A stretch of DNA of 64,000 nt from Clostridia bacterium (GCA_017537195.1 JAFYLF010000045.1:951-64950), one strand, 5' to 3'. Shown: positions 16,116 to 26,665, counted from the first letter of the stretch. Notes: generated from the sequence alone by a model not told the origin. Made by a program: numbers and translations.

Positions 16116-17069
16116 ATGAAAAAGATTTTAGCGATTTTATTAGCTGTTGCTATGCTTTTCTCTTTAACGGCTTGCGGTAGCAGCACTATGACAATGGGCA
16201 CAGGTAGCCCCACAGGTACATACTATGCTTATGGCGGTATTATCGGTCAGTACATAACAAACAATGCCGGTGTTACTGTTAACGCTGTATCAACAGGCGG
16301 TTCTAAAGACAACATTCAGGGTATCGACGCTGGTGACTATCAGTTAGGTACTGTTCAGTCCGATGTTATGCACTATGCTTGGAACGGAACCCGTTCTTTT
16401 GAAGAAGATGGAAAAATCGAGAGCTTCCGCACAGTAGCAGGTCTCTATGCAGAGGCAGTTCAGCTCGTTACAGTTAATCCTGACATTAAGTCCGTTGCTG
16501 ACTTAAAGGATAAGAAGGTATCTATCGGCGCTCCCGGTTCAGGTGTTTATTTCAATGCGGTTGACGTTCTTGCTGCTGCAGGACTTACCGAAAAGGATAT
16601 AAAACCCCAATACCAAAACTTCGACGAAAGCGCTGATGCTTTAAAAGACGGCAAAATCGACGCTGCATTTATCGTTGCAGGCGCTCCGACACCCGCTATC
16701 ACAGAACTTAGCTTGACTAATGCTAACACTCGTATCGTTCCGATAGACGGTGATATTGCTAAAAAACTTATGGAAGACAACACCTTCTATTCAGTTTATA
16801 AAATCCCTGCAAACACTTATAAGAATCAAACAGAGGATATTGAAAGTGTCACTGTTAAGGCTACATTAATAGTAAATGCTGATGCAAGTGAAGAGGATGT
16901 TTACAACTTGACAGCAGCTATATTTGAAAATATTGAAGCTATCACAAAAGAGCATGCAAAGGGTGCAGAATTAAGCCTTGAAAATGCTACTGACGGTCTT
17001 ACTGTACCTTTCCATGCAGGTGCTGCAAAGTACTTTAAAGAAAAAGGAATTGAAGTAGCAGTTAAGTAA
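16116..17069 (+). CDS. TAXI-family TRAP transporter solute-binding lipoprotein
   Basis: Lipobox signal (LFSLTACGS). GTGSPTGTYYAYGG motif characteristic of TAXI receptors. Followed by a fused TRAP permease. Confidence 0.8.
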   Translation: MKKILAILLAVAMLFSLTACGSSTMTMGTGSPTGTYYAYGGIIGQYITNNAGVTVNAVSTGGSKDNIQGIDAGDYQLGTVQSDVMHYAWNGTRSFEEDGKIESFRTVAGLYAEAVQLVTVNPDIKSVADLKDKKVSIGAPGSGVYFNAVDVLAAAGLTEKDIKPQYQNFDESADALKDGKIDAAFIVAGAPTPAITELSLTNANTRIVPIDGDIAKKLMEDNTFYSVYKIPANTYKNQTEDIESVTVKATLIVNADASEEDVYNLTAAIFENIEAITKEHAKGAELSLENATDGLTVPFHAGAAKYFKEKGIEVAVK

Positions 17070-17097
17070 TTAACTATTGTTAATTTTTTAAAAAGAG

Positions 17098-17130
17098 ATA
17101 GCTGCGGCATAAACAGTCGCAGCTATTTTA
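17098..17130 (+). terminator. intercistronic hairpin (partial terminator/stabiliser) between binding-protein and permease genes
   Basis: ATAGCTGCG GCATAAACAGT CGCAGCTAT followed by TTTA. Confidence 0.45.
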
Positions 17131-17154
17131 ATATTTTACTGAAAGGTAGGGAGT

Positions 17155-19107
17155 TTGTTGCTTTTCTCGAAAAAGACAGAACCTAAATCTAACGAGCCAA
17201 TGGATTTAGATGCTGTAATGAAAAAATTTGATAGAGAATCTAATGTAAGAGTATGGGAAGGCAAGGCGAAAATCGCAGTAAACTGTATTCTTGCGGCTTT
17301 TTCTCTTTTTTGTATTTATGTAACCTTTTTTGCTACTTGGCTTGATGCAATCAGGCTTTCAAGCTTTGTAGGCTCAATTGTATTTATCGGTTTCTTGGTT
17401 TATCCTGCTAAAAAGGGAACACAAAGGGTGAACTACATTCCGTGGTATGACATTGTTTTAATGTTAGCAGGCTCAGCTTCATTCTTCTATTATACTTTTG
17501 ATGCAATGACTATTATTCAGCAGGGTAACAGATTTGAATTACATCAAATATTGATTGGTGTAGTAGGAATACTTTGTTTATTAGAGCTTTGCAGACGCTG
17601 TGTGGGTATTCCCATCATTATTGTTGCGGCAGTTTTTATTGTTTATGCAATTGGCTGGGGACTTACAAACCCTGATATATTCCGTAGATTAGAGGGCTTG
17701 GTTGGAAAACTGTTCTATACTACCACTTCGGGTATTTTATCAACTCCCGTTAATACTTGCTCGAAATACATTGCAATATTTATAATTTTCGGCGCATTTC
17801 TTGAAAGAACAGGTATCGCCGATTTCTTCATAAAAATTTCCAACTCAGTTGTTGGCGGATTTTCGGGCGGACCTGCAAAGGTTGCAGTTGTAGCCTCGGC
17901 TATGGAGGGTATGGTTTCGGGTTCTTCGGTTGCTAATACTGTAGGTTCAGGCTCGGTTACTATTCCGCTTATGAAGAAGACGGGGTATAAGCCTGAATTT
18001 GCCGCTGCGGCAGAGGCTTCGGCTTCGACGGGCGGACAGATAATGCCTCCCATTATGGGTGCGGCTGCATTCCTTATGGCAGAAAATATTGGCGTGTCTT
18101 ATAGCAACATTGTTGTTCGTGCAATTTTACCTGCTTGCCTATATTTCTTGGGCGTGTTTATAGCAGTTCATTTAGAGGCTAAAAAGGAAGGTCTTCGTGG
18201 ACTTTCAAGAGAAGAATTACCAAGATTTTTACCCCTTTTAAAGCAAACATATTTACTTCTTCCGCTTATAATACTTATAGTTCTTGTAAGTTCGGGCTCA
18301 CGTTCAATAGCCTATGCTGCGGCTATTGCAATTATTGCAACCATTGTTGTAGGTATTTTCAATAAAGAAAACCGAATTACACCAAAACGTATCTTGGAAG
18401 CGCTTGCAGCAGGCGGACAGGGTATGATTACCGTTGCAGTTGCTTGCGGTGTGGCAGGTATAATTGCCGGTACCATTACAATGACAGGTCTTGCTACTAT
18501 GCTTATAAATGGTATTTTATCTCTTGCAGGCGATAAGGTTATTATTGCGCTCTTCCTAACAATGCTTACCTGTATAGTATTAGGTATGGGTGTTCCTACC
18601 ACTGCAAACTATTGCATTATGGCGGCAACTTGCGCACCTATTCTTATAAAAATGGGTGTTCCCGATTTGGCGGCGCATTTCTTCGTGTTCTATTTCGGTA
18701 TCGTAGCAGATTTGACTCCGCCCGTAGCATTGGCGGCTTATGCCGGTGCTGCTATTGCACAAGCAAACCCAATGAAAACTGCATTTACCTCAACAAAGCT
18801 TGCTATCGGCGCCTTTATAGTACCTTATGTATTTGCGCTTAACCCCGCAATGTTGTTTATAAATACAACAGTTCCTGAAGTTATTTTGATTTGCATAACT
18901 TCGTTTGTCGGTATATTTGCGGTATCTTCCGCACTGAGCGGATATTTCTTGCATAATATGAGATGGTATGAACGAATTGTAAGCGTAGTCGGTGGCTTAT
19001 TGCTTATTTACCCCGGTATTGTAACAGATGTAATCGGTGTTGCATTAGTTGGTATTGTTTTTGCAATTCAGACAATTACAAAAAAGAAAAATATAATAAA
19101 TGCATAA
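17155..19107 (+). CDS. TRAP transporter fused permease (TAXI-associated DctQ/DctM-type)
   Basis: 650-aa polytopic protein directly after the TAXI receptor. Gly/Ala-rich TM helices typical of the fused 4TM/12TM permease. TTG start after AGGTAGGGAG. The exact start is uncertain. Confidence 0.8.
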   Translation: MLLFSKKTEPKSNEPMDLDAVMKKFDRESNVRVWEGKAKIAVNCILAAFSLFCIYVTFFATWLDAIRLSSFVGSIVFIGFLVYPAKKGTQRVNYIPWYDIVLMLAGSASFFYYTFDAMTIIQQGNRFELHQILIGVVGILCLLELCRRCVGIPIIIVAAVFIVYAIGWGLTNPDIFRRLEGLVGKLFYTTTSGILSTPVNTCSKYIAIFIIFGAFLERTGIADFFIKISNSVVGGFSGGPAKVAVVASAMEGMVSGSSVANTVGSGSVTIPLMKKTGYKPEFAAAAEASASTGGQIMPPIMGAAAFLMAENIGVSYSNIVVRAILPACLYFLGVFIAVHLEAKKEGLRGLSREELPRFLPLLKQTYLLLPLIILIVLVSSGSRSIAYAAAIAIIATIVVGIFNKENRITPKRILEALAAGGQGMITVAVACGVAGIIAGTITMTGLATMLINGILSLAGDKVIIALFLTMLTCIVLGMGVPTTANYCIMAATCAPILIKMGVPDLAAHFFVFYFGIVADLTPPVALAAYAGAAIAQANPMKTAFTSTKLAIGAFIVPYVFALNPAMLFINTTVPEVILICITSFVGIFAVSSALSGYFLHNMRWYERIVSVVGGLLLIYPGIVTDVIGVALVGIVFAIQTITKKKNIINA

Positions 19108-19109
19108 AT

Positions 19110-19137
19110 AAAAAATGAGCCGCAAGGCTCATTTTTT
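19110..19137. terminator. bidirectional terminator
   Basis: AAAAAATGAGCC GCAA GGCTCATTTTTT between convergent genes. Confidence 0.7.
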
Positions 19138-19503
19138 ATTTGCAATTCGATTTGTCTTTTTAAATAATTCTGAAATTCCCATTAAAATCAATAATCCGCC
19201 GAAGATTTTGCGTGTGATATCGCCGCCTAATACATCAGCTAAAAGTATTCCTATTATAGCGCCGATAATGCCGAATACCGCAATTTTTAAAGTGGGTTTC
19301 CATTTAATTTGTTTTTTTATGGAATATATTATTATTGATAAAATACCGATAGGAATGAAGAATAAAAGATTTATGCCTTGCGCAGTTAATTGTTTGGTAT
19401 CGGTAAAAAGGGCAAGGTAGATTATAAGAATACCGCCGCCGCCAAGTCCCATACTGCCGAGTATTCCTGAAAAAAGCCCTGCTAAAAGGGCGGAGATATT
19501 CAT
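19129..19503 (-). CDS. TauE/SafE (TSUP) family half-size membrane protein
   Basis: 124 aa, 4 TM. GxGGG motifs (GSMGLGGGGILIIYL). Confidence 0.7.
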   Translation of the reverse strand: MNISALLAGLFSGILGSMGLGGGGILIIYLALFTDTKQLTAQGINLLFFIPIGILSIIIYSIKKQIKWKPTLKIAVFGIIGAIIGILLADVLGGDITRKIFGGLLILMGISELFKKTNRIANKK

Positions 19504-19865
19504 TTAAGCAGCAGGCGTACGCCTGCGTAAATCATAAGTGCGCCGAAAATTCGCTTAAGCCATTTTGGAGAAATTTTTTTGAGCAAATATGTGCCTATAA
19601 CAGCGCCTAATAGCCCTGTTGGTATATAGATTAAAGCATCGCTTAAATCGGTATAATCTTTATACAAATATATAAAAGCTGAAATAATGGTTATGGGTAA
19701 AATTATTGCAATGGCATTTGTATGCGATTCTTTTTGTGAAAAACCCAATTTTTTAAGAAATGGAACGGCAAGCATACCGCCACCGGCCCCCAAAATTCCG
19801 TTTACAAAGCCGATGCAAAGTCCTGCTGCGGCACCTTGGAGGTTTTGTTTTGTCTTTTCTTTCAT
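19500..19865 (-). CDS. TauE/SafE (TSUP) family half-size membrane protein
   Basis: 121 aa, 4 TM. GILGAGGGMLAVPFL motif. Overlaps the downstream half-gene by 4 nt (ATGA). Confidence 0.7.
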   Translation of the reverse strand: MKEKTKQNLQGAAAGLCIGFVNGILGAGGGMLAVPFLKKLGFSQKESHTNAIAIILPITIISAFIYLYKDYTDLSDALIYIPTGLLGAVIGTYLLKKISPKWLKRIFGALMIYAGVRLLLK

Positions 19866-19984: not shown

Positions 19985-20710
19985 ATGGGCGAGAAACGTA
20001 ATGAAATTATAGAAGAACAGCGCAAAGCGAGAGAGGAATTTTTGAGGTTAAAAAAAATGCAGCAAGGTGAAATCGAGCCTGAGGCAAAACCAAGCGAGGT
20101 TGCTATAAAACCCCGTACTTTCAGTGAAAAATTCAGTAATTTTTGGTATCACTTTAAATTTCAAACCATACTGGTGCTTATTATTTGTGTTTTGTTGTCT
20201 ATTGTAACGGTACAGTGTGCCACACGCGAAAAATTTGATTTTTCGGTCTTGTATTTTACATATACTCCGACAATAGATACTCAGCTTGACAGTGTGGAAG
20301 AATATTTCGAAAAATATGCAACCGATATTGACGGTAACGGTGAGGTTAATATTCAGGTTGTAAACTGCAGTGTAAGCGATAGTAACCGAGATGCTGGACG
20401 TAATACAATGTTTGCAAAGGTGCAGTCGGTTTTAGTGGCGGAGCATTCGACAGTGCTTTTTGTTATAGATGATAAAGCAAAGCAGTATTTTGACGATGCG
20501 TTTGATTATTCAATTTTTGTGGAAGAACCTATTAAATTGGGTGATGAGTTCTATGAGCAGGTCGCAGATGAAAAATTGCCTTTGCCGAAAGATTTAATGT
20601 TGGGACTCAGAATTATTAAAAACACCGGCTTTGAGGGAGATAAGGAAGCCGAAAAGATTTTTTTGGAAGGCCAAAAAGTTTTAGAAAAAATAAAAAAGCA
20701 AAACGGTTAA
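19985..20710 (+). CDS. hypothetical membrane-anchored protein (241 aa)
   Basis: Charged N-terminus, one TM segment (FQTILVLIICVLLSIVTV), then a globular domain. No family recognised. Confidence 0.5.
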   Translation: MGEKRNEIIEEQRKAREEFLRLKKMQQGEIEPEAKPSEVAIKPRTFSEKFSNFWYHFKFQTILVLIICVLLSIVTVQCATREKFDFSVLYFTYTPTIDTQLDSVEEYFEKYATDIDGNGEVNIQVVNCSVSDSNRDAGRNTMFAKVQSVLVAEHSTVLFVIDDKAKQYFDDAFDYSIFVEEPIKLGDEFYEQVADEKLPLPKDLMLGLRIIKNTGFEGDKEAEKIFLEGQKVLEKIKKQNG

Positions 20711-20727
20711 TTCCGTTTTGCTTTTTC
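20694..20727. terminator. palindromic terminator overlapping two convergent stop codons
   Basis: AAAAAGCAAAACGG TTAATT CCGTTTTGCTTTTT. Confidence 0.65.
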
Positions 20728-21486
20728 TGATGTTAAGGGGAATTCCATATTAAGCATTTTGTATTTGGCGCCGGCTACTTCGTTTTCGGGGAGCTTTTCC
20801 CAAGTGGAGTTGCCAATTATTTTTTCTATAGCCTCAAGGTTTTCTTTAGTGTCAGTAATGCCTGAAATAAGCGGAGTTCTAATGATATAAGTCTTACCGC
20901 TGTTCTTTAAAATCTCAAAATTTTCGAGTATTTGTTCATTGCCGACACCGGTGTAATATTTATGCTTTTCGCTGTCAGCGAGTTTTATATCCATTATCAC
21001 AAGGTCGAGTTTTTCTATTACCTTTTTAAAGGTTTCGCTATCGGTGTAACCGCTGGTTTCAATGCAAAGGTGGAAGTCTTTTAATTCTTCCATTAGTTCC
21101 AGTAAAAACTCACTTTGCATTAGCGGTTCACCGCCCGAAAATGTAAAACCGCCAAAATCATCACCCAATACAGAAGCTGAAGGGATAACTTCATTTGCTA
21201 CCTCTTTGGCTGAAACATTTCTGCCTGCTATACTTAAGCAATTTTCGGGGCAGATATGTACGCATCTTGAAAACGGCTGACATTCGGGGTGGTCGCATTT
21301 TTTCATACATTTACCACAATTTTTGCAGTTGTTACATTTGTACATCAGTTGCGGTTTTATACTTAAACCTTCAGGATTGTGGCACCACATACAGCGAAGC
21401 GGACAGCCCTTTAGAAATATAGTGGTTCTTATCCCAGGGCCGTCATGTACCGCCATTTCTTTAATATCAAAAATTGTTCCGTTCAT
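20707..21486 (-). CDS. glycyl-radical enzyme activating protein (radical SAM)
   Basis: GIRTTIFLKGCPLRCMWCHNPE (CX3CX2C) plus a Cys-rich ferredoxin-like insert (CNNCKNCGKCMKKC ... CVHICPENC), as in non-PFL GRE activases. Confidence 0.9.
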   Translation of the reverse strand: MNGTIFDIKEMAVHDGPGIRTTIFLKGCPLRCMWCHNPEGLSIKPQLMYKCNNCKNCGKCMKKCDHPECQPFSRCVHICPENCLSIAGRNVSAKEVANEVIPSASVLGDDFGGFTFSGGEPLMQSEFLLELMEELKDFHLCIETSGYTDSETFKKVIEKLDLVIMDIKLADSEKHKYYTGVGNEQILENFEILKNSGKTYIIRTPLISGITDTKENLEAIEKIIGNSTWEKLPENEVAGAKYKMLNMEFPLTSEKAKRN

Positions 21487-21489
21487 AAT

Positions 21490-22221
21490 TTAAAATAAAG
21501 CCAACTTTACAGCACGGTAATTATATTCGGCAATTTTTTTGCCACCGTTACTGTTGGGGTGTAGTCCGTCAATTAAGTCGCGACCGTTTTGTTCTTTTAT
21601 TTCGTAAATACCGCAAATTCCACAGTTGAATGTATCTACAAACATAACGTCTGAAATTCTGTCACATACTGCTTTGATAACCTCGCCTTTGAGCTTGGTT
21701 GATTTGTAGCTACGGAGAGCTTCGCACGCTTGGATAGGGGAGCAGTAGAAGATTTTGGCATTTGGATAAAGTCTTCTTAAATGCTCGTAAGCGTAACGCA
21801 TGGCACCTGCCCAAGTTGTACGGTCAACAAGTTCTAACGGTAGGGGTGATAAATCTTCTTTTACAAACTGACTGTTGATTTGTTCATTAGTTAAAGGAAG
21901 TTGTTCACCGCCATCGTTAGTGCCCACTGAAACTATAATAACGTCAAAATCTTGGAATTTATCATCTTTTTGGTAAAGTGGATGGGTTTGGTCTTTTGCG
22001 CGTAGCAGTTTTTCAACCTGATTACAAAGGGTGTTATTTGGTCCGCCACTGTCGGATAGACGGAATATAGGATTTCCGTCTAAAACGGTGTTATGTCTGT
22101 CGCGCCAAGTAGCCGAGCTTACCGCAATGTTAACGCTAAGCTCAGGCTTCATAATGTTATTAAAATGCTCTACCCAAACGCCGAGAGCTGTGATACTGTC
22201 ACCCATAAAAAGAACTTTCAT
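21490..22221 (-). CDS. SGNH/GDSL family hydrolase (esterase)
   Basis: Block I FMGDSIT, block III VGTNDG, block V DGLHPN. 243 aa, no signal peptide. Confidence 0.8.
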   Translation of the reverse strand: MKVLFMGDSITALGVWVEHFNNIMKPELSVNIAVSSATWRDRHNTVLDGNPIFRLSDSGGPNNTLCNQVEKLLRAKDQTHPLYQKDDKFQDFDVIIVSVGTNDGGEQLPLTNEQINSQFVKEDLSPLPLELVDRTTWAGAMRYAYEHLRRLYPNAKIFYCSPIQACEALRSYKSTKLKGEVIKAVCDRISDVMFVDTFNCGICGIYEIKEQNGRDLIDGLHPNSNGGKKIAEYNYRAVKLALF

Positions 22222-22230
22222 AAATTACTC

Positions 22231-24216
22231 CTAAATTTTATATGCCTGACGGGCAATTACGTGGTCTTGATATTCTTTATCGAGTTCAACAAAGTATGCG
22301 CTCCAACCCCAGATACGAACAACCAATTGTTTGTAGTTTTCGGGGTGTGCCTGAGCGTCAAGAAGTTGCTCGGTGTTAACGGTATTAAGCTGTAATTGAT
22401 GACCGCCAAGTTCAATATAACGTTTAACAAGAGCAGCAACCTTTTCAATACCGTCTTCATCTGCAAATACGCTTTGGTGGAATTCGAGTGTCAGCGGTCC
22501 GCCGTTTATAGCATTTTCAAAGTGCTGCTTGGTCATTGAAGCTATAACCGAAACGGGACCCTTAACCTTTGCGAAAAGGCTTACCGAATAGTTAGTACCA
22601 AAGGGTTCTTTATCTCGTCTGCCGTCAGCAGAAGCTCCGATTTCATTAGCGTGCCAGAGGTAGAACATAGCGCTGCCGGTACCTGCTCTATAGATGCCGC
22701 CGCGGCAGTTTACTCTGCCTTCAAGGCATTTAGCGAAGCTATCCAAAAGATCGGTTGCGATAGAGTCAACATAGTCATCGTTGTTGCCGAGCTTTGGCGA
22801 TTCATAGCGAAGAATTGGTAAAAGCTCGCTATGTTTTTCAAAGTTACTATCAATTGCTTCTAAAAGGGTTTGCTTATCAATAGCTTTTTCTTCAAAAACA
22901 TATTTCTTAATAGCAGCCAAAGAGTCAGCGCCTGTGGCGATACCTGTGCCGTGAATACCAAAGTTGTTATATTTTGAACCCTCGGCAACATTGCAACCCA
23001 TAAGCACATTCATAAATGGAGAGGGTACAAACCAAAGGTCTTTTATTCCGTCACAAATACGGTCACATTCGTTATTTATTTCTTCAACAACTTTTTGGAA
23101 GAAATCATCATAGGTTTCACATTCCATAAAACCGTTATGCAAAACTGTATCAACAGCCTTTGGATATGACATTGCGCCGATATTATCAACATCTGCGCCA
23201 ACGCTTGGAATAATAAATTCCCAACAAGCCGCAACGGCATAGTTTACGGCATCATTATGCTCATATCCCAATTTTTCAAGCGCAGGAATAACAATATCAT
23301 CATTTGAATATTGAGGGAAGCCAAGCCCTGCTTTTGTTAAATGTGTGCCCTTAACGTAAATTTCTTTGGGTGTATCTTTATTAACACGAAGATTAATTTT
23401 TGGGTCGATAAGTTTATTATTGCAGGAAGCCTCCATACAAAGCTCGGTTAAAAGGTTGAAGATATATTCGCCGTTTTCGTCTATACCGCCGAGCATCATA
23501 CTCTGTCCATTGTCACCTTGCTGAACACCCACATAAATATCGCTATCCTTATTGAAAGAAAGGAAGAAATCTTCAAGCAATTCGAGAGCGGTTTCTCTGG
23601 TGTAAACGCCTTTTTCAATATCTGCTTTCAAGTAAGGATACATATATTTATCAAATCTGCCGATTGTATTATGGTAGTTACCTTCAAGCCATAAAGCATA
23701 ATGTAAAATACGGAAGAACTGAAGCGCTTCACGGAAATTGCGAGCAGGATAACGCGGTACTTGTGTTAAAATCTCAACCAAGTCTTCTCTGTTCTGTCTT
23801 TTTGCTTCTTCTAAATATTTGTCAGAAAGTTTTATGATATTATCAATAGCACGTTTGCTATATTCGTCGGCTTCTTCACGCTTCTTTAGTAAGCCAGAAG
23901 AAATTGTATCATAATAATTGGGGGATAAATTTGAAATATAGCCAAGTTCGTGAATATAATATCTTTCTTTTAAATCAGTCCATTCTTTTTCAGTAAAGCA
24001 ATCAGGAAGATTAGAAACAGTACGCAAAAATACAATTTTTTCGTCAGGCAAAATAACCGCTTTTTCTTCATCGGTAATACGCTCAAAGCGGTCTGCCATA
24101 CGCTCAATGGGAGCAAGACCTTTTTGTGCATATTCTTTGCCTAAATTCCAGTCAACAGTGTGACGGTATTGATGGTGTTCCTTGTTTACAATGAAATTAT
24201 ATAGGTTTTTATTCAT
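22231..24216 (-). CDS. glycyl radical enzyme, PFL2/eliminase-like, unusually short (661 aa), substrate unknown
   Basis: C-terminal glycine motif LVVRIWGWSAYFVELDKEYQDHVIAR (Gly codon 22306-22308). Cys loop AVAACWEF (Cys codon 23224-23226). FREALQFFRILHYALWLEG and GRFDKYMYPYLK blocks resemble dehydratase-type GREs. Confidence 0.85.
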   Translation of the reverse strand: MNKNLYNFIVNKEHHQYRHTVDWNLGKEYAQKGLAPIERMADRFERITDEEKAVILPDEKIVFLRTVSNLPDCFTEKEWTDLKERYYIHELGYISNLSPNYYDTISSGLLKKREEADEYSKRAIDNIIKLSDKYLEEAKRQNREDLVEILTQVPRYPARNFREALQFFRILHYALWLEGNYHNTIGRFDKYMYPYLKADIEKGVYTRETALELLEDFFLSFNKDSDIYVGVQQGDNGQSMMLGGIDENGEYIFNLLTELCMEASCNNKLIDPKINLRVNKDTPKEIYVKGTHLTKAGLGFPQYSNDDIVIPALEKLGYEHNDAVNYAVAACWEFIIPSVGADVDNIGAMSYPKAVDTVLHNGFMECETYDDFFQKVVEEINNECDRICDGIKDLWFVPSPFMNVLMGCNVAEGSKYNNFGIHGTGIATGADSLAAIKKYVFEEKAIDKQTLLEAIDSNFEKHSELLPILRYESPKLGNNDDYVDSIATDLLDSFAKCLEGRVNCRGGIYRAGTGSAMFYLWHANEIGASADGRRDKEPFGTNYSVSLFAKVKGPVSVIASMTKQHFENAINGGPLTLEFHQSVFADEDGIEKVAALVKRYIELGGHQLQLNTVNTEQLLDAQAHPENYKQLVVRIWGWSAYFVELDKEYQDHVIARQAYKI

Positions 24217-24263
24217 ATAAATTTTCTCCTATTACATCTATATTTTAAATATACAGCAAAATC

Positions 24264-24293
24264 TTGACATTTTCACGCTGAATTTAGTATAAT
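24264..24293 (+). promoter_or_regulatory. sigma-A type promoter for the AraC regulator
   Basis: TTGACA (24264-24269), 18-nt spacer, TATAAT (24288-24293). Confidence 0.55.
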
Positions 24294-24326
24294 ATAAGCA
24301 GAATTTTATCTTTTAGAGGTGTTTTT

Positions 24327-25109
24327 ATGTTATTTCATCAATCAATCAACTCGTCTTCTAACTATAATTACAACATATCTTTTTATAGCGACGATATTTG
24401 GGAACACCATTTTCATAAAAATTTAGAGCTTATATATGTTATTGAAGGCTCGGTCAACTGCACAATAAATGATAAGAACTACCTTTTAACTGCAGGTGAA
24501 TTTGGGTTGTGTTTGCCATACGATATTCACTCTTATAAACCGCAGGAAAACACAACATACTGGGTATTGGTTTTTTCGGATGATTTTGTTCGTTTTTTCT
24601 CAAAGAAAATAAAAAATAAAATCAGTGACGGTTACTCCTTTGTTGCTAAAGACGAAATTAAAAATTATATAATTTCACAACTTATAAACAACAAAAATCC
24701 TTCAATATTCACTTTAAAATCTTGCCTTTATGCAATTTGTGAAGAATATTTAAATTCTGTTAAACTTGTTGATAAAAACCGAAGTCATAGCGAAGCGGTT
24801 TCAGCTATTGTAGATTTCGTTGCCGAAAACCATACTAAAAAAATTACACTTACAGATATTGCAAAAGAGCTCGGTTACGACTATAACTATATGTCGCGTC
24901 ATTTTAAAAATATTTTTAATATTACATTTACCGACTTTATAAATATGTATCGGTTAGAAACAGCAATAAAGCTTTTAGACGAAACAAATAACAGCATAAC
25001 CGATATTGCATTTGAAAGCGGTTTTCAAAGTGTTCGCAGTTTTCACAGCTTTTTTAAAAAATCAATGAACATAAGCCCCACGGAATATAGAAAAGCATCC
25101 CGAAAATAA
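24327..25109 (+). CDS. AraC family transcriptional regulator (cupin + HTH)
   Basis: 260 aa. C-terminal AraC HTH (ITDIAFESGFQSVRSFHSFFKKSMNISPTEYRK). Divergent from the GRE operon. Confidence 0.8.
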   Translation: MLFHQSINSSSNYNYNISFYSDDIWEHHFHKNLELIYVIEGSVNCTINDKNYLLTAGEFGLCLPYDIHSYKPQENTTYWVLVFSDDFVRFFSKKIKNKISDGYSFVAKDEIKNYIISQLINNKNPSIFTLKSCLYAICEEYLNSVKLVDKNRSHSEAVSAIVDFVAENHTKKITLTDIAKELGYDYNYMSRHFKNIFNITFTDFINMYRLETAIKLLDETNNSITDIAFESGFQSVRSFHSFFKKSMNISPTEYRKASRK

Positions 25110-25121
25110 CGGGATGCTTTT
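25091..25121. terminator. palindromic terminator between convergent genes
   Basis: AAAAGCATCCCG AAAATAA CGGGATGCTTTT. It overlaps the AraC stop codon. Confidence 0.65.
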
Positions 25122-25123
25122 AA

Positions 25124-26665
25124 CTATTCTACGGGTGTAAAAATATAAACCGAATCTTTTTCAACGCCTAATCTTTCAAGAGTGTCCTGTGAATAATTGT
25201 TGAAATCGTAATAAATAAGGTTTACAATAGCGAATTTTTTGTCTTTGGGGTCGATGTAGATATTTTCACGCATTTTTGGTAGGTGGTCATAAGAAATTTG
25301 GTCTCTTCTTTGGTCGCCCTCAAAGCCTGTAATTTCAATAGCAACCTGACCCGAGCGGTCAAATACGTTGTTTTCAAAAACGGTATCTATACAGTAGTTT
25401 TCGTGAACACCCATACGAATAAATTTTGCGGCGCCGTGCTTCTCACCAAAGCCTTTTTCGCACTTGCGGCAAATATTATAACCGAAGTAGGTGTTGTCAA
25501 AGCAAGGCTGACCCAAAACGTCGCTGTCTTGATTTTGAGTGTAGAAAAATTCAACACCGTATTCGCTGTATTCAATAAGGCAGTCGTTAACGCTAAAGTT
25601 TTTAAAATGAACGGGATGCGCTTCCCACCAGTTTGGATTTTCTTTGATATGACGGCTTGATTGCGCTGTTACGGCGCAGTCGTAATGCATCGTAAAGAAG
25701 CAATGTTCAAACTTCATATTGTCGCATCTGCTCCATGCGCCACCACCACCGCCGAAGCCGTAGCAACCGTTGTTTATATTGGCGTGTCCGCCGTAGTGAC
25801 CACCCATAAAAGCCAGAATACAATAGGTGAGTTCTATGTTTTTTGAAGAGTCGGTAAGGAAGTAGTCTTGACCGTAGCGTATATCAAGGTTGTGAACGTT
25901 AATATCGTGTTGGAAGTTGCGTATCGGGATAGTGCTGCCTTGACGTGAAAGTTCTATTTCTTCAAAAACTTCACTGGGGTTGCCTTTGCTACAGTAAAGG
26001 TATAGCTTATATTCGTTCTTTTCTTCATCTTTTAGGGTGTAAAAACCGCTGAAGAAAAAGTCGAGTTCATTTTGGAGGTCTGCTTTTTGCATTTTCTTTT
26101 TGGCGTATTCTTTACCGCCGTCAAACACAACAAGACCAATATCACGAGTGTCTAAAACCTTGTCAAACACCCAAACGTTAGGAATGTCGGTTTCTACCCA
26201 TTTTGCTTCTGTTTTGCCGTTGTAGGAATAGTAGATTTTAGGTTTTGGACCTTCGCCGTAGGGTTGGTAGGTAACACCATCTTGAAGCGGCAAATTACCG
26301 CGCCACAAGTCACCACGGCGAAGATATAGACCGTCTCCTTGTTGGAATTTAAACTCGGTGGCTTTTTGCAATGTTTTCCAAGCGGTTTCGGGCGTGAGAC
26401 CGTCCGCTTCATCATCACCATCGTTAGATAAATAATATTTTGTGCCGTATATACGAAGCTCACTTTCATCGTAAACTATCATATCGTAAAGGTCGTTACG
26501 CAATTTTTCGACATTATCCATAAATTCGAGTGTGGCATAGGTTTGGTTTCTGCCTTCGCCTAAAGCCTTAACACCCGCACGGTATTCTTTGGGGGTTATT
26601 AGTTTTTCGGGTTTTTTATAGGGGCTAAAGCCGTAGTAATCCTCTCTTTTATTCATTTGTGACAC
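25124..26665 (-). CDS. right-handed beta-helix-like protein (putative carbohydrate-active enzyme), cytoplasmic
   Basis: 513 aa. The N-terminal YYLSNDGDDEADGLTPETAWKTLQKA segment resembles the start of pectin-lyase-fold/DUF1565 proteins. Repeated short beta-strand-like segments with Asn/Gly/His. No signal peptide. Own TTGCAA/TACAAT promoter-like boxes at 26713-26718 and 26691-26696. Confidence 0.45.
   Translation of the reverse strand: MSQMNKREDYYGFSPYKKPEKLITPKEYRAGVKALGEGRNQTYATLEFMDNVEKLRNDLYDMIVYDESELRIYGTKYYLSNDGDDEADGLTPETAWKTLQKATEFKFQQGDGLYLRRGDLWRGNLPLQDGVTYQPYGEGPKPKIYYSYNGKTEAKWVETDIPNVWVFDKVLDTRDIGLVVFDGGKEYAKKKMQKADLQNELDFFFSGFYTLKDEEKNEYKLYLYCSKGNPSEVFEEIELSRQGSTIPIRNFQHDINVHNLDIRYGQDYFLTDSSKNIELTYCILAFMGGHYGGHANINNGCYGFGGGGGAWSRCDNMKFEHCFFTMHYDCAVTAQSSRHIKENPNWWEAHPVHFKNFSVNDCLIEYSEYGVEFFYTQNQDSDVLGQPCFDNTYFGYNICRKCEKGFGEKHGAAKFIRMGVHENYCIDTVFENNVFDRSGQVAIEITGFEGDQRRDQISYDHLPKMRENIYIDPKDKKFAIVNLIYYDFNNYSQDTLERLGVEKDSVYIFTPVE

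Follow-up and report, generated by a model that had tools for sequence, protein, structure and literature searches.

A compact glycyl radical enzyme with an SGNH esterase encoded between enzyme and activase in a Clostridia bacterium: a candidate operon for sugar or polyol catabolism

The window considered here is a stretch of 64,000 nucleotides (nt) from Clostridia bacterium (GCA_017537195.1, JAFYLF010000045.1:951-64950), numbered from its first letter, and the element of interest is a set of three minus-strand genes encoding a glycyl radical enzyme (GRE), an SGNH/GDSL hydrolase and a GRE activase. The original prediction, drawn from the sequence alone, regarded these genes as one operon facing a divergent cupin-AraC regulator, and proposed that the esterase releases the true GRE substrate, possibly from a product of a neighbouring beta-helix enzyme. 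The order of the three genes, their coordinates and strands and the gaps of 9 and 3 nt turned out to be exact to the base, and the divergent cupin-AraC gene across a shared region of 110 base pairs (bp) with TTGACA and TATAAT was confirmed with Pfam and a promoter scan. The features of the locus, with protein lengths in amino acids (aa) and the evidence in brackets, are the following:

20692-20727, minus strand: intrinsic-terminator-like hairpin with a 15-bp stem and a T run, directly 3' of the activase gene, closing the operon
20707-21486, minus strand: activase, 259 aa (open reading frame (ORF) calling and TIGR02494)
21490-22221, minus strand: SGNH/GDSL hydrolase, 243 aa (ORF calling and Lipase_GDSL_2, PF13472)
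22231-24216, minus strand: GRE, 661 aa (PFL-like and Gly_radical)
24217-24326, no strand: divergent control region, 110 bp, between the GRE and AraC genes
24327-25109, plus strand: divergent cupin-AraC regulator, 260 aa (AraC_binding/cupin and HTH_18)
25124-26665, minus strand: right-handed beta-helix protein, 513 aa, judged to lie outside the module

Within the 9-nt gap between the GRE and SGNH genes, an AGGAG ribosome-binding site, 6 nt 5' of the SGNH ATG, overlaps the GRE stop codon, and 3 nt separate the SGNH gene from the activase gene. This tight spacing, together with the ribosome-binding site, the terminator and a gene order that recurs in other genomes, supports the view that GRE, SGNH and activase form one operon. 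The hairpin terminates both of two convergent genes, the activase gene and a plus-strand gene of 241 aa (19985-20710), whose coding ends overlap by 4 nt; the hairpin sequence also covers the last bases of this plus-strand gene. In agreement with the original prediction, no shell protein, aldehyde dehydrogenase or transporter was found among the eight window genes scanned with Pfam between 19985 and 28899, and the window does not present a glycyl radical enzyme microcompartment locus, defined as shell genes and an acylating aldehyde dehydrogenase beside a GRE.

What this earlier description overlooked is that the GRE itself is atypical, being short and carrying an asparagine in place of the catalytic histidine. 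The protein matches the Pfam families PFL-like (288 bits) and Gly_radical (79.1 bits against a cut-off of 22.2), contains the glycyl radical motif RIWG637WSAYF, and displays a Cys-X-Glu (CXE) motif, C331-W-E333, which does not vary among 55 close homologs and which most members of the wider short family retain, Cys331 aligning with Cys433 of glycerol dehydratase. It is 100% identical to a protein from a metagenome-assembled genome (MAG) named 'Clostridia bacterium', and over 100 clusters share 77-92% identity with it, almost all at a length of 656-664 aa. An exhaustive search of 1.84 billion representatives delineates a wider short family of 650-702 aa, whose members, with 33-62% identity, can be aligned from end to end; for canonical GREs, which measure about 780-800 aa, the alignment to the window protein is confined to the C-terminal four-fifths. 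In the same line, sequence and profile searches of the PDB, whose top solved-structure matches are glycerol dehydratase, propanediol dehydratase, PflD, HypD and CutC, give alignments that begin only at query residue ~114-124, and the short family is devoid of the N-terminal helical insert of about 85 aa found in canonical GREs. None of the characterised GRE equivalogs of NCBIfam (HypD, HpfG, CutC and others) was matched, scores being at most 295 bits against cut-offs of at least 1000, and the PFL2-3 family TIGR01774 yielded 305.5 bits against a cut-off of 678.2, the GRE equivalog and family cut-offs spanning 678-1150 bits. The AlphaFold model, with a predicted local distance difference test score (pLDDT) of 74.7 and a predicted template modelling score of 0.79, contains the GRE barrel and a confidently modelled N-terminus, and Foldseek superposes it on CutC, propanediol dehydratase and glycerol dehydratase with query-normalised template modelling scores (TM-scores) of 0.75-0.77. 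Taken together, these sequence comparisons place the GRE in an uncharacterised, compact clade of 650-700 aa that matches no characterised GRE. The 2026 review of the GRE superfamily lists no such compact clade and no esterase-associated GRE (PMC13450708), in agreement with the earlier statement that an esterase between a GRE and its activase is outside any known GRE pathway, and a literature search found no paper on the compact clade or on any esterase-linked GRE.

The activase belongs to the glycyl-radical activating proteins of TIGR02494 (253 bits against a cut-off of 174.35), and a shortened, Cys-rich ferredoxin-like insert comes after its CX3CX2C motif at Cys28/32/35. In the wider short GRE family, some proteins no longer carry the catalytic motifs (P0368, P0405 and P0419): P0368 has neither the CXE nor the glycyl motif, yet an activase adjoins it in locus L087, and P0405 reads RLWSSG in place of RVWGWS, the glycyl glycine being apparently replaced by serine. 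These motif-less proteins recall the aminoacyl radical enzymes reportedly described in 2024.

In the reaction typical of the GRE class concerned, a thiyl radical takes a hydrogen from a carbinol carbon, a glutamate deprotonates the hydroxyl, and the vicinal C-O, C-N or C-S bond breaks; to our knowledge, all known CXE members proceed by such a hydrogen abstraction at a carbinol carbon, after which the vicinal leaving group is lost or migrates, as 1,2-eliminases or ring-opening isomerases. The CXE motif is defined as the marker of this class in PMC13450708, and by this motif the window GRE is a predicted member of the CXE eliminases and isomerases, but it fails membership of the glycerol and propanediol dehydratases. 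This last point bears on a first alternative explanation, in which the GRE would be a microcompartment-free diol dehydratase acting on 1,2-propanediol from fucose or rhamnose, or on glycerol, generic alcohol dehydrogenases reducing the aldehyde as an electron sink and the esterase being incidental, or freeing glycerol or sugar from acyl or acetyl esters. Besides the presence of the CXE motif, this explanation draws on the fact that the best solved structures are precisely these two enzymes: the glycerol dehydratase of C. butyricum (1R8W) and the propanediol dehydratase of R. inulinivorans (5I2A) are the best PDB sequence matches of the GRE (E 1e-68 to 1e-78) and share with it the GRE barrel (TM-score of about 0.75), the Cys-X-Glu loop, the glycyl motif and an adjacent, dedicated PFL2-type activase. 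However, the compact GRE has no counterpart to some 85-100 of their N-terminal residues, its score of 305 bits is under half the PFL2-3 cut-off of 678, and the differences extend to the active site. Asn96 stands at the column of glycerol dehydratase His164 and propanediol dehydratase His166 (in the GxGHxxPxY motif), so that the general-acid histidine is missing, and asparagine is the rule throughout the short family; this mapping comes from a MAFFT alignment with 11 canonical-length representatives, the PDB searches aligning nothing before residue ~114. In addition, the signature loops of the short family, QQGDNGQS (232-239), R510-AGTGS and NGGPLTLE (571-578), fall by alignment where Tyr339 or Phe344 and Tyr640 line the glycerol and propanediol dehydratase pockets. 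The polar QQGDNGQS replaces the Tyr339/Phe344 loop and Gly514 aligns with Tyr640, which would suggest a larger and more polar pocket. The locus also differs from those of the dehydratases, no microcompartment, aldehyde dehydrogenase or 1,3-propanediol dehydrogenase being present here.

A second comparison is offered by YbiW and PflD, the enzymes of 'anhydroglycolysis' that open the ring of 1,5-anhydroglucitol-6-phosphate or 1,5-anhydromannitol-6-phosphate. They are of the CXE type, act on a sugar derivative and reach comparable PDB scores (E ~1e-65 to 1e-73), and, as for them, homologs of the compact GRE are linked to aldolases and sugar uptake, the GRE-activase pair being flanked by aldolases in locus L120, described below. 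Nevertheless, YbiW and PflD are proteins of 765-810 aa with a full N-terminal region, are linked to a phosphotransferase system and take a phosphorylated substrate, whereas the compact GRE is found without such a system, with a kinase in L120 only, and its accessories are an esterase or a cupin.

Relatives of the operon were collected by a scan of the GTDB species-representative genomes, in which 314 places were found and the best 80 examined (69-91% GRE identity). The survey comprises the window and 79 distinct species-level loci, in which ORFs were called and clustered, and these best 80 of 314 come without exception from MAGs of gut, rumen or faecal origin, with the labels Acutalibacteraceae, Oscillospiraceae, Ruminococcaceae or Clostridia. 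All 80 loci encode a full-length GRE, and in 72 of them the activase gene lies immediately 3' of the GRE gene, the remainder being mostly cut by contig ends, and the conserved unit is the GRE with its activase, often with a divergent AraC gene. In 52 of these 72 loci, no gene separates GRE from activase; elsewhere, this slot holds an SGNH gene alone in 13, a DUF4867 cupin gene alone in 5, and both together in L012 (1/72), the slot of L031 (1/72) being left unassigned. The closest relatives, L077, L002, L008 and L004 (88-91% GRE identity), are without the esterase, and a TAATG in which the GRE stop codon and the activase start codon overlap joins the two genes. In the relatives, neither the clusters of recurrent neighbours nor the 134 immediate neighbours include microcompartment shell proteins or an acylating aldehyde dehydrogenase. 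As regards the neighbourhood that the original prediction had treated as a module, the GRE-activase pair (72/80) and the divergent AraC gene (32/80) are thus the parts that hold across species, as opposed to the full triad (SGNH in 14 of 72 slots) and the beta-helix gene.

Even so, the order GRE-SGNH-activase, with spacers of 1-40 nt, recurs in 13 other species-level genomes and the SGNH subfamily is very small, with 129 clusters (90% identity) among 5.8 billion; the arrangement is therefore not a chance one, and the accidental juxtaposition that had been considered for the esterase can be set aside. The DUF4867 cupin occupies the slot in L010, L012, L014, L016, L022 and L080, and is located elsewhere in the cluster in L024, L026, L058 and L067. 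DUF4867 is a metal-binding cupin linked to ketose and sulfosugar clusters, for which ring or anomer isomerisation has been proposed (PMC11968277). The SGNH protein resembles the DUF4867/SftX cupins in sharing the same slot, in six relatives, and in the conditioning role that may be considered for it, that of the cupin being a proposed sugar ring or anomer isomerase; it differs from them in fold and chemistry, which are unrelated, the role of DUF4867 is only proposed, and the cupin is absent from the window.

The SGNH protein is a cytoplasmic, single-domain member of PF13472 (Lipase_GDSL_2; 50.1 bits against a cut-off of 32.9). Its blocks I, III and V, namely GDS (7-9, with the nucleophile Ser9), GTND (100-103) and DGLHPN (218-223), are invariant in 14 GRE-linked copies, whose identity goes down to 47%, and in 18 wider homologs; at the putative block II (oxyanion Gly), placed by alignment alone, the window reads AVSSATW and relatives AVSGA. 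The nearest characterised matches are weak and are acetyl-xylan esterases, Est2A in the PDB (E ~1e-3) and AxeA1 in NCBIfam (E 3e-4). With the CE2 acetyl-xylan esterase Est2A (3U37), the window protein shares blocks I, III and V and a setting among glycan-utilisation genes; unlike Est2A, from which it is very distant, it is cytoplasmic and single-domain, has no carbohydrate-binding module, and is encoded between a radical enzyme and its activase, an arrangement undescribed for any GRE system. From these resemblances, we infer that it would be an O-acyl esterase acting on carbohydrate.

In the GRE tree, esterase-positive loci are dispersed among at least eight branches. The idea that their GREs form a subclade or carry diagnostic residues was rejected, the tree revealing no subclade and no GRE alignment column separating esterase-positive from esterase-negative loci. 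Over the 14 copies, SGNH divergence correlates with GRE divergence (rho 0.31) about as activase divergence does (0.34). Moreover, the GRE-activase slot of L005 retains a 139-nt degenerate remnant of the C-terminal part of the SGNH gene (L005:11972-12119), translating as ..DRISDVVFVNTFNCGIYEE*..GRDLIYGLHP.., which is a gene loss in progress. Because the catalytic blocks are invariant, because SGNH divergence tracks that of the GRE as activase divergence does, and because of the scar in L005, the sequences describe the esterase as old or ancestral and under selection, but dispensable and repeatedly lost, that is to say as neither a chance insertion nor an essential step. The origin of the substrate from a sugar or polyol, as originally proposed, fits the neighbourhoods presented below, whereas an obligatory de-esterification is excluded, since 52 of the 72 slots are empty and no GRE residue distinguishes the esterase carriers.

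In the SGNH tree, all 14 GRE-linked copies belong to one large clade and all of them occupy the GRE-activase slot, the stand-alone copies L082-L085 forming a basal group. The large clade is not exclusively GRE-linked, this possibility having been rejected on account of L093, a stand-alone copy inside it that is 88% identical to a large-clade member and whose flanks contain no GRE over 4 kb in either direction; L094-L096 carry more distant copies, alone or fused, and a metagenome scan with the SGNH profile returned six relevant loci, none of them GRE-linked. As a side observation, the esterase relatives of L094:204-1655 and L096:78-2879 are the C-terminal domains of proteins of 483 and 933 aa, one esterase relative adjoins a phage terminase gene, and the L083 copy lies near a GH25 lysozyme gene and a beta-helix tailspike-like gene, which hints that the SGNH subfamily includes phage glycan-deacetylating enzymes.

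These data raise a second alternative, namely that the SGNH protein is a passenger, a stand-alone acyl esterase that landed repeatedly, or persists, in a permissive and well-expressed slot without any link to the GRE reaction. Such a history would account for its absence from 52 of 72 loci, nearest relatives included, for the loss by deletion, for the stand-alone, phage-associated and fused relatives, for GRE residues that do not co-vary with it, and for a slot that also accepts the unrelated DUF4867. It fits poorly, however, with the same slot, order and strand in 14 species over at least eight GRE clades with 1-40 nt spacers, with catalytic residues that remain invariant despite identities down to 47%, and with the fact that every one of the 14 large-clade copies at GRE loci occupies the GRE-activase slot. 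Furthermore, other esterase types recur near GREs, a GDSL gene heads the operon of a homolog with 50% identity, and DUF4867 and a galactose mutarotase found with other homologs are both candidates for sugar conditioning, which argues that the slot has a function. A mere passenger is therefore considered unlikely.

The regulator was assigned to the AraC/XylS family from its C-terminal double helix-turn-helix (HTH_18, 80 bits against a cut-off of 33.6) and its N-terminal cupin effector domain (AraC_binding, 39.4 bits against 21.1). Its own promoter is a perfect TTGACA-18-TATAAT on the plus strand (24264-24293), and the candidate promoter facing the GRE on the minus strand is weak (GTGAAA-17-TATATT, 24276-24248), as expected for an activator-dependent promoter. 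The control region contains a conserved block, AAAGATAAA..TGCTTATATTATA..GCGAGAAAAAGTCAA..TTGCTnTATAAT, and shows strong conservation: 22 columns do not vary among 18 species-level loci, and both promoters and the GCGAGAAAAAGTCAA block are retained in these 18 species. This conservation supports a model in which the AraC-type protein would regulate the operon through the shared divergent region. Orthologs of the regulator, with 47-78% identity, hold the same divergent position in 32 of the 80 loci, and a member of the regulator cluster is found within 6 kb in 43 of them. Besides, L031 and L062 each carry two GRE genes of the compact clade, convergent in L062, each with its own AraC-type gene, which suggests paralogous cassettes in one genome.

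Regarding the substrate, annotated glycosidases occur within 6 kb in 21 of the 80 loci and include two GH36 types, GH29, GH78, GH94, GH127, GH51, GH3, a trehalase-like (GH37-like) and an MGH1-like type. Esterase-type genes (SGNH, DUF4886, SASA, CE4 and others) occur within 6 kb in 23 of the 80, often in long same-strand clusters with an MFS transporter, FucI and a class II aldolase. Among more distant members of the GRE family, the following gene orders were observed:

L120, 62% GRE identity: LacI, then ketose-bisphosphate aldolase, GRE, activase, aldolase, PF02952 isomerase and FGGY kinase, with GH29 nearby
L086, 50% GRE identity: GDSL, GH125, GH3, GRE and activase, then AraC and an ABC sugar transporter
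L088, 48% GRE identity: activase, GRE, sugar transporter and galactose mutarotase
L090, 46% GRE identity: iron-type alcohol dehydrogenase (Fe-ADH), GRE, activase, NagB and NagA, with SASA nearby
L089, 40% GRE identity: a biosynthetic-looking cluster

The L120 operon (L120:7101-14749), with its LacI repressor in place of AraC, is the most informative context found. By their gene content, these contexts point to the catabolism of a glycan-derived sugar or polyol. Some of them speak for the diol dehydratase explanation introduced above, since GH29 fucosidase and GH78 rhamnosidase genes recur, FucI and a class II aldolase are present in L014 and L073, the isomerase-kinase-aldolase operon of L120 is accompanied by GH29, and Fe-ADH adjoins the GRE in L090. 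Nevertheless, fucose and rhamnose genes are restricted to a handful of loci and neither a CoA-acylating aldehyde dehydrogenase nor a 1,3-propanediol dehydrogenase is conserved in the relatives; with the low family score, the clade-wide replacement of His164 and the remodelled pocket loops also standing against it, a diol dehydratase seems rather unlikely.

The same contexts were confronted with a third alternative, according to which the GRE would process an organosulfonate derived from plant sulfoquinovose, such as dihydroxypropanesulfonate or a sulfosugar, the esterase deacylating the sulfolipid. In this sense, DUF4867 is chiefly known from sulfoglycolysis clusters, as SftX, the sole NCBIfam match of the L120 isomerase is the sulfoquinovose isomerase SftI, rumen Acutalibacteraceae are prominent sulfoquinovosidase carriers (PMC13219744), and the window contains, about 1.2 kb downstream, split genes of the TauE/SafE family. 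However, the SftI match, at 99 bits, stays far below its cut-off of 700, NCBIfam identified no sulfoquinovosidase in the recurrent neighbours, the TauE genes are syntenic in the closest clade only, and no sulfite reductase or sulfonate transporter is conserved. In addition, the Arg-x3-Gln motif of the C-S lyases appears to be without counterpart, Gly92 and Asn96 occupying the aligned positions according to the alignment and PMC13450708. A sulfonate substrate is therefore highly improbable. A weak GH31 match was also rejected as a sulfoquinovosidase, NCBIfam finding none, and a GH36-like neighbour resembles a beta-L-arabinopyranosidase.

The 513-aa neighbour of the regulator was originally described as a partner of the module with an N-terminus resembling pectin-lyase-fold and DUF1565 proteins. 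The beta-helix part of this description stands: homologs carry PF13229, and the AlphaFold model (pLDDT 93.4) consists of short stacked strands forming a parallel beta-helix. The DUF1565 part does not, the protein matching no Pfam family at E <= 0.01 and no NCBIfam entry. It is devoid of a signal peptide, and Foldseek retrieves GH136, GH120, GH110, GH28 and polysaccharide lyase beta-helices at low TM-scores of 0.3-0.44. Among the surveyed relatives, the gene is syntenic in L077 only, and elsewhere its family is multi-copy, a single locus having as many as three members, and occurs to one side or the other of the GRE in only four further loci. As it is syntenic in L077 only and multi-copy in varying positions elsewhere, its position here looks like chance and the gene is unrelated to the module, contrary to the partnership first proposed. 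The family occurs in tandem arrays (two copies in L077:6003-9091, three in L021:2856-9901) and mixes cytoplasmic and lipoprotein-signal forms, no CAZy-type family being assigned. A 522-aa gene located 3' of the activase in L001 was rejected as a homolog, since it shows no similarity to the 513-aa protein.

On the other side of the operon, a TAXI-family TRAP transporter, made of a solute-binding protein and a fused permease, is encoded at 16116-19107 on the plus strand, about 1.6 kb from the operon with three genes intervening. Its binding protein weakly resembles binding proteins for aliphatic sulfonates (42.6 bits, cut-off 163.5), and the transporter is not conserved alongside the GRE. The TauE/SafE (TSUP) membrane protein is encoded on the minus strand at 19129-19865 as two half genes of 121 and 124 aa whose stop and start codons overlap; only the closest clade (L002, L003, L005, L007, L008 and L077) keeps this split next to the operon.

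On balance, we lean, with modest confidence, towards the view that the locus is a GRE operon for a sugar or polyol in which the SGNH protein is an accessory that conditions the substrate. According to this model, a small, polar, glycan-derived sugar, deoxy-sugar or polyol would be imported to the cytoplasm, where the AraC-type regulator would sense it, or a precursor, and switch on the weak GRE promoter. The activase, with its radical S-adenosylmethionine cluster motif, would install the glycyl radical on G637, from which a thiyl radical would be formed at C331. The SGNH protein, most likely an O-acetyl or O-acyl esterase, would turn an esterified substrate into a form acceptable to the GRE, and the DUF4867 cupin and galactose mutarotase of other lineages, as candidate sugar ring or anomer isomerases, may perform an analogous conditioning. 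Since most lineages carry no accessory, the esterase would widen the pool of usable substrates rather than define the pathway, and the beta-helix gene would play no part.

Several observations weigh against this model. The neighbourhoods are heterogeneous, many cassettes lying among housekeeping genes (RadA, Spo0A, amidase), and the glycosidase counts are raw, with enrichment unquantified against the genome background of hosts that are saccharolytic. The SGNH relatives that stand alone, lie in phage-like regions or are fused indicate that the esterase is not specific to GREs, and the lack of co-variation between GRE residues and the esterase fits an accessory role and an unrelated passenger equally. 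The GRE model is poor at residues 514-572 and 628-661. More generally, the case is built on sequence and predicted models, from which the class of substrate is inferred.

A more far-reaching proposal, which we put forward tentatively as possible rather than probable, is that the compact GREs would catalyse a radical transformation new to GREs, the substrate being a free sugar, deoxy-sugar or polyol, cyclic or acyclic, without a phosphate group, and that the slot genes (SGNH deacetylase, DUF4867) and the mutarotase would form a hitherto unrecognised conditioning layer delivering the right de-esterified anomer. Candidates for such a chemistry would be a ring dehydration or a ring opening in which Asn96 and the loop of Asp235/Asn236 replace the canonical histidine.

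In gut microbiomes, GREs are involved in the formation of trimethylamine, p-cresol, skatole and H2S precursors and in the use of hydroxyproline, and although uncharacterised GRE clades are not rare, each newly assigned one has revealed a new nutrient niche. In this context, the novelty of the present locus lies mainly in a compact GRE clade with an altered catalytic residue and an interchangeable accessory slot. If the GRE were only a diol dehydratase, the operon would amount to a minor architectural variant. Nonetheless, its compact size, its 314 places in GTDB genomes of gut and rumen Clostridia, the changed residue, the links to glycan genes and the sugar-type regulator make this clade a target in the search for a new anaerobic step of sugar or polyol metabolism, for which the esterase, cupin and mutarotase partners hint at candidate substrates; if the preferred model is true, these partners would be the first 'substrate-conditioning' accessory genes described inside a GRE operon.

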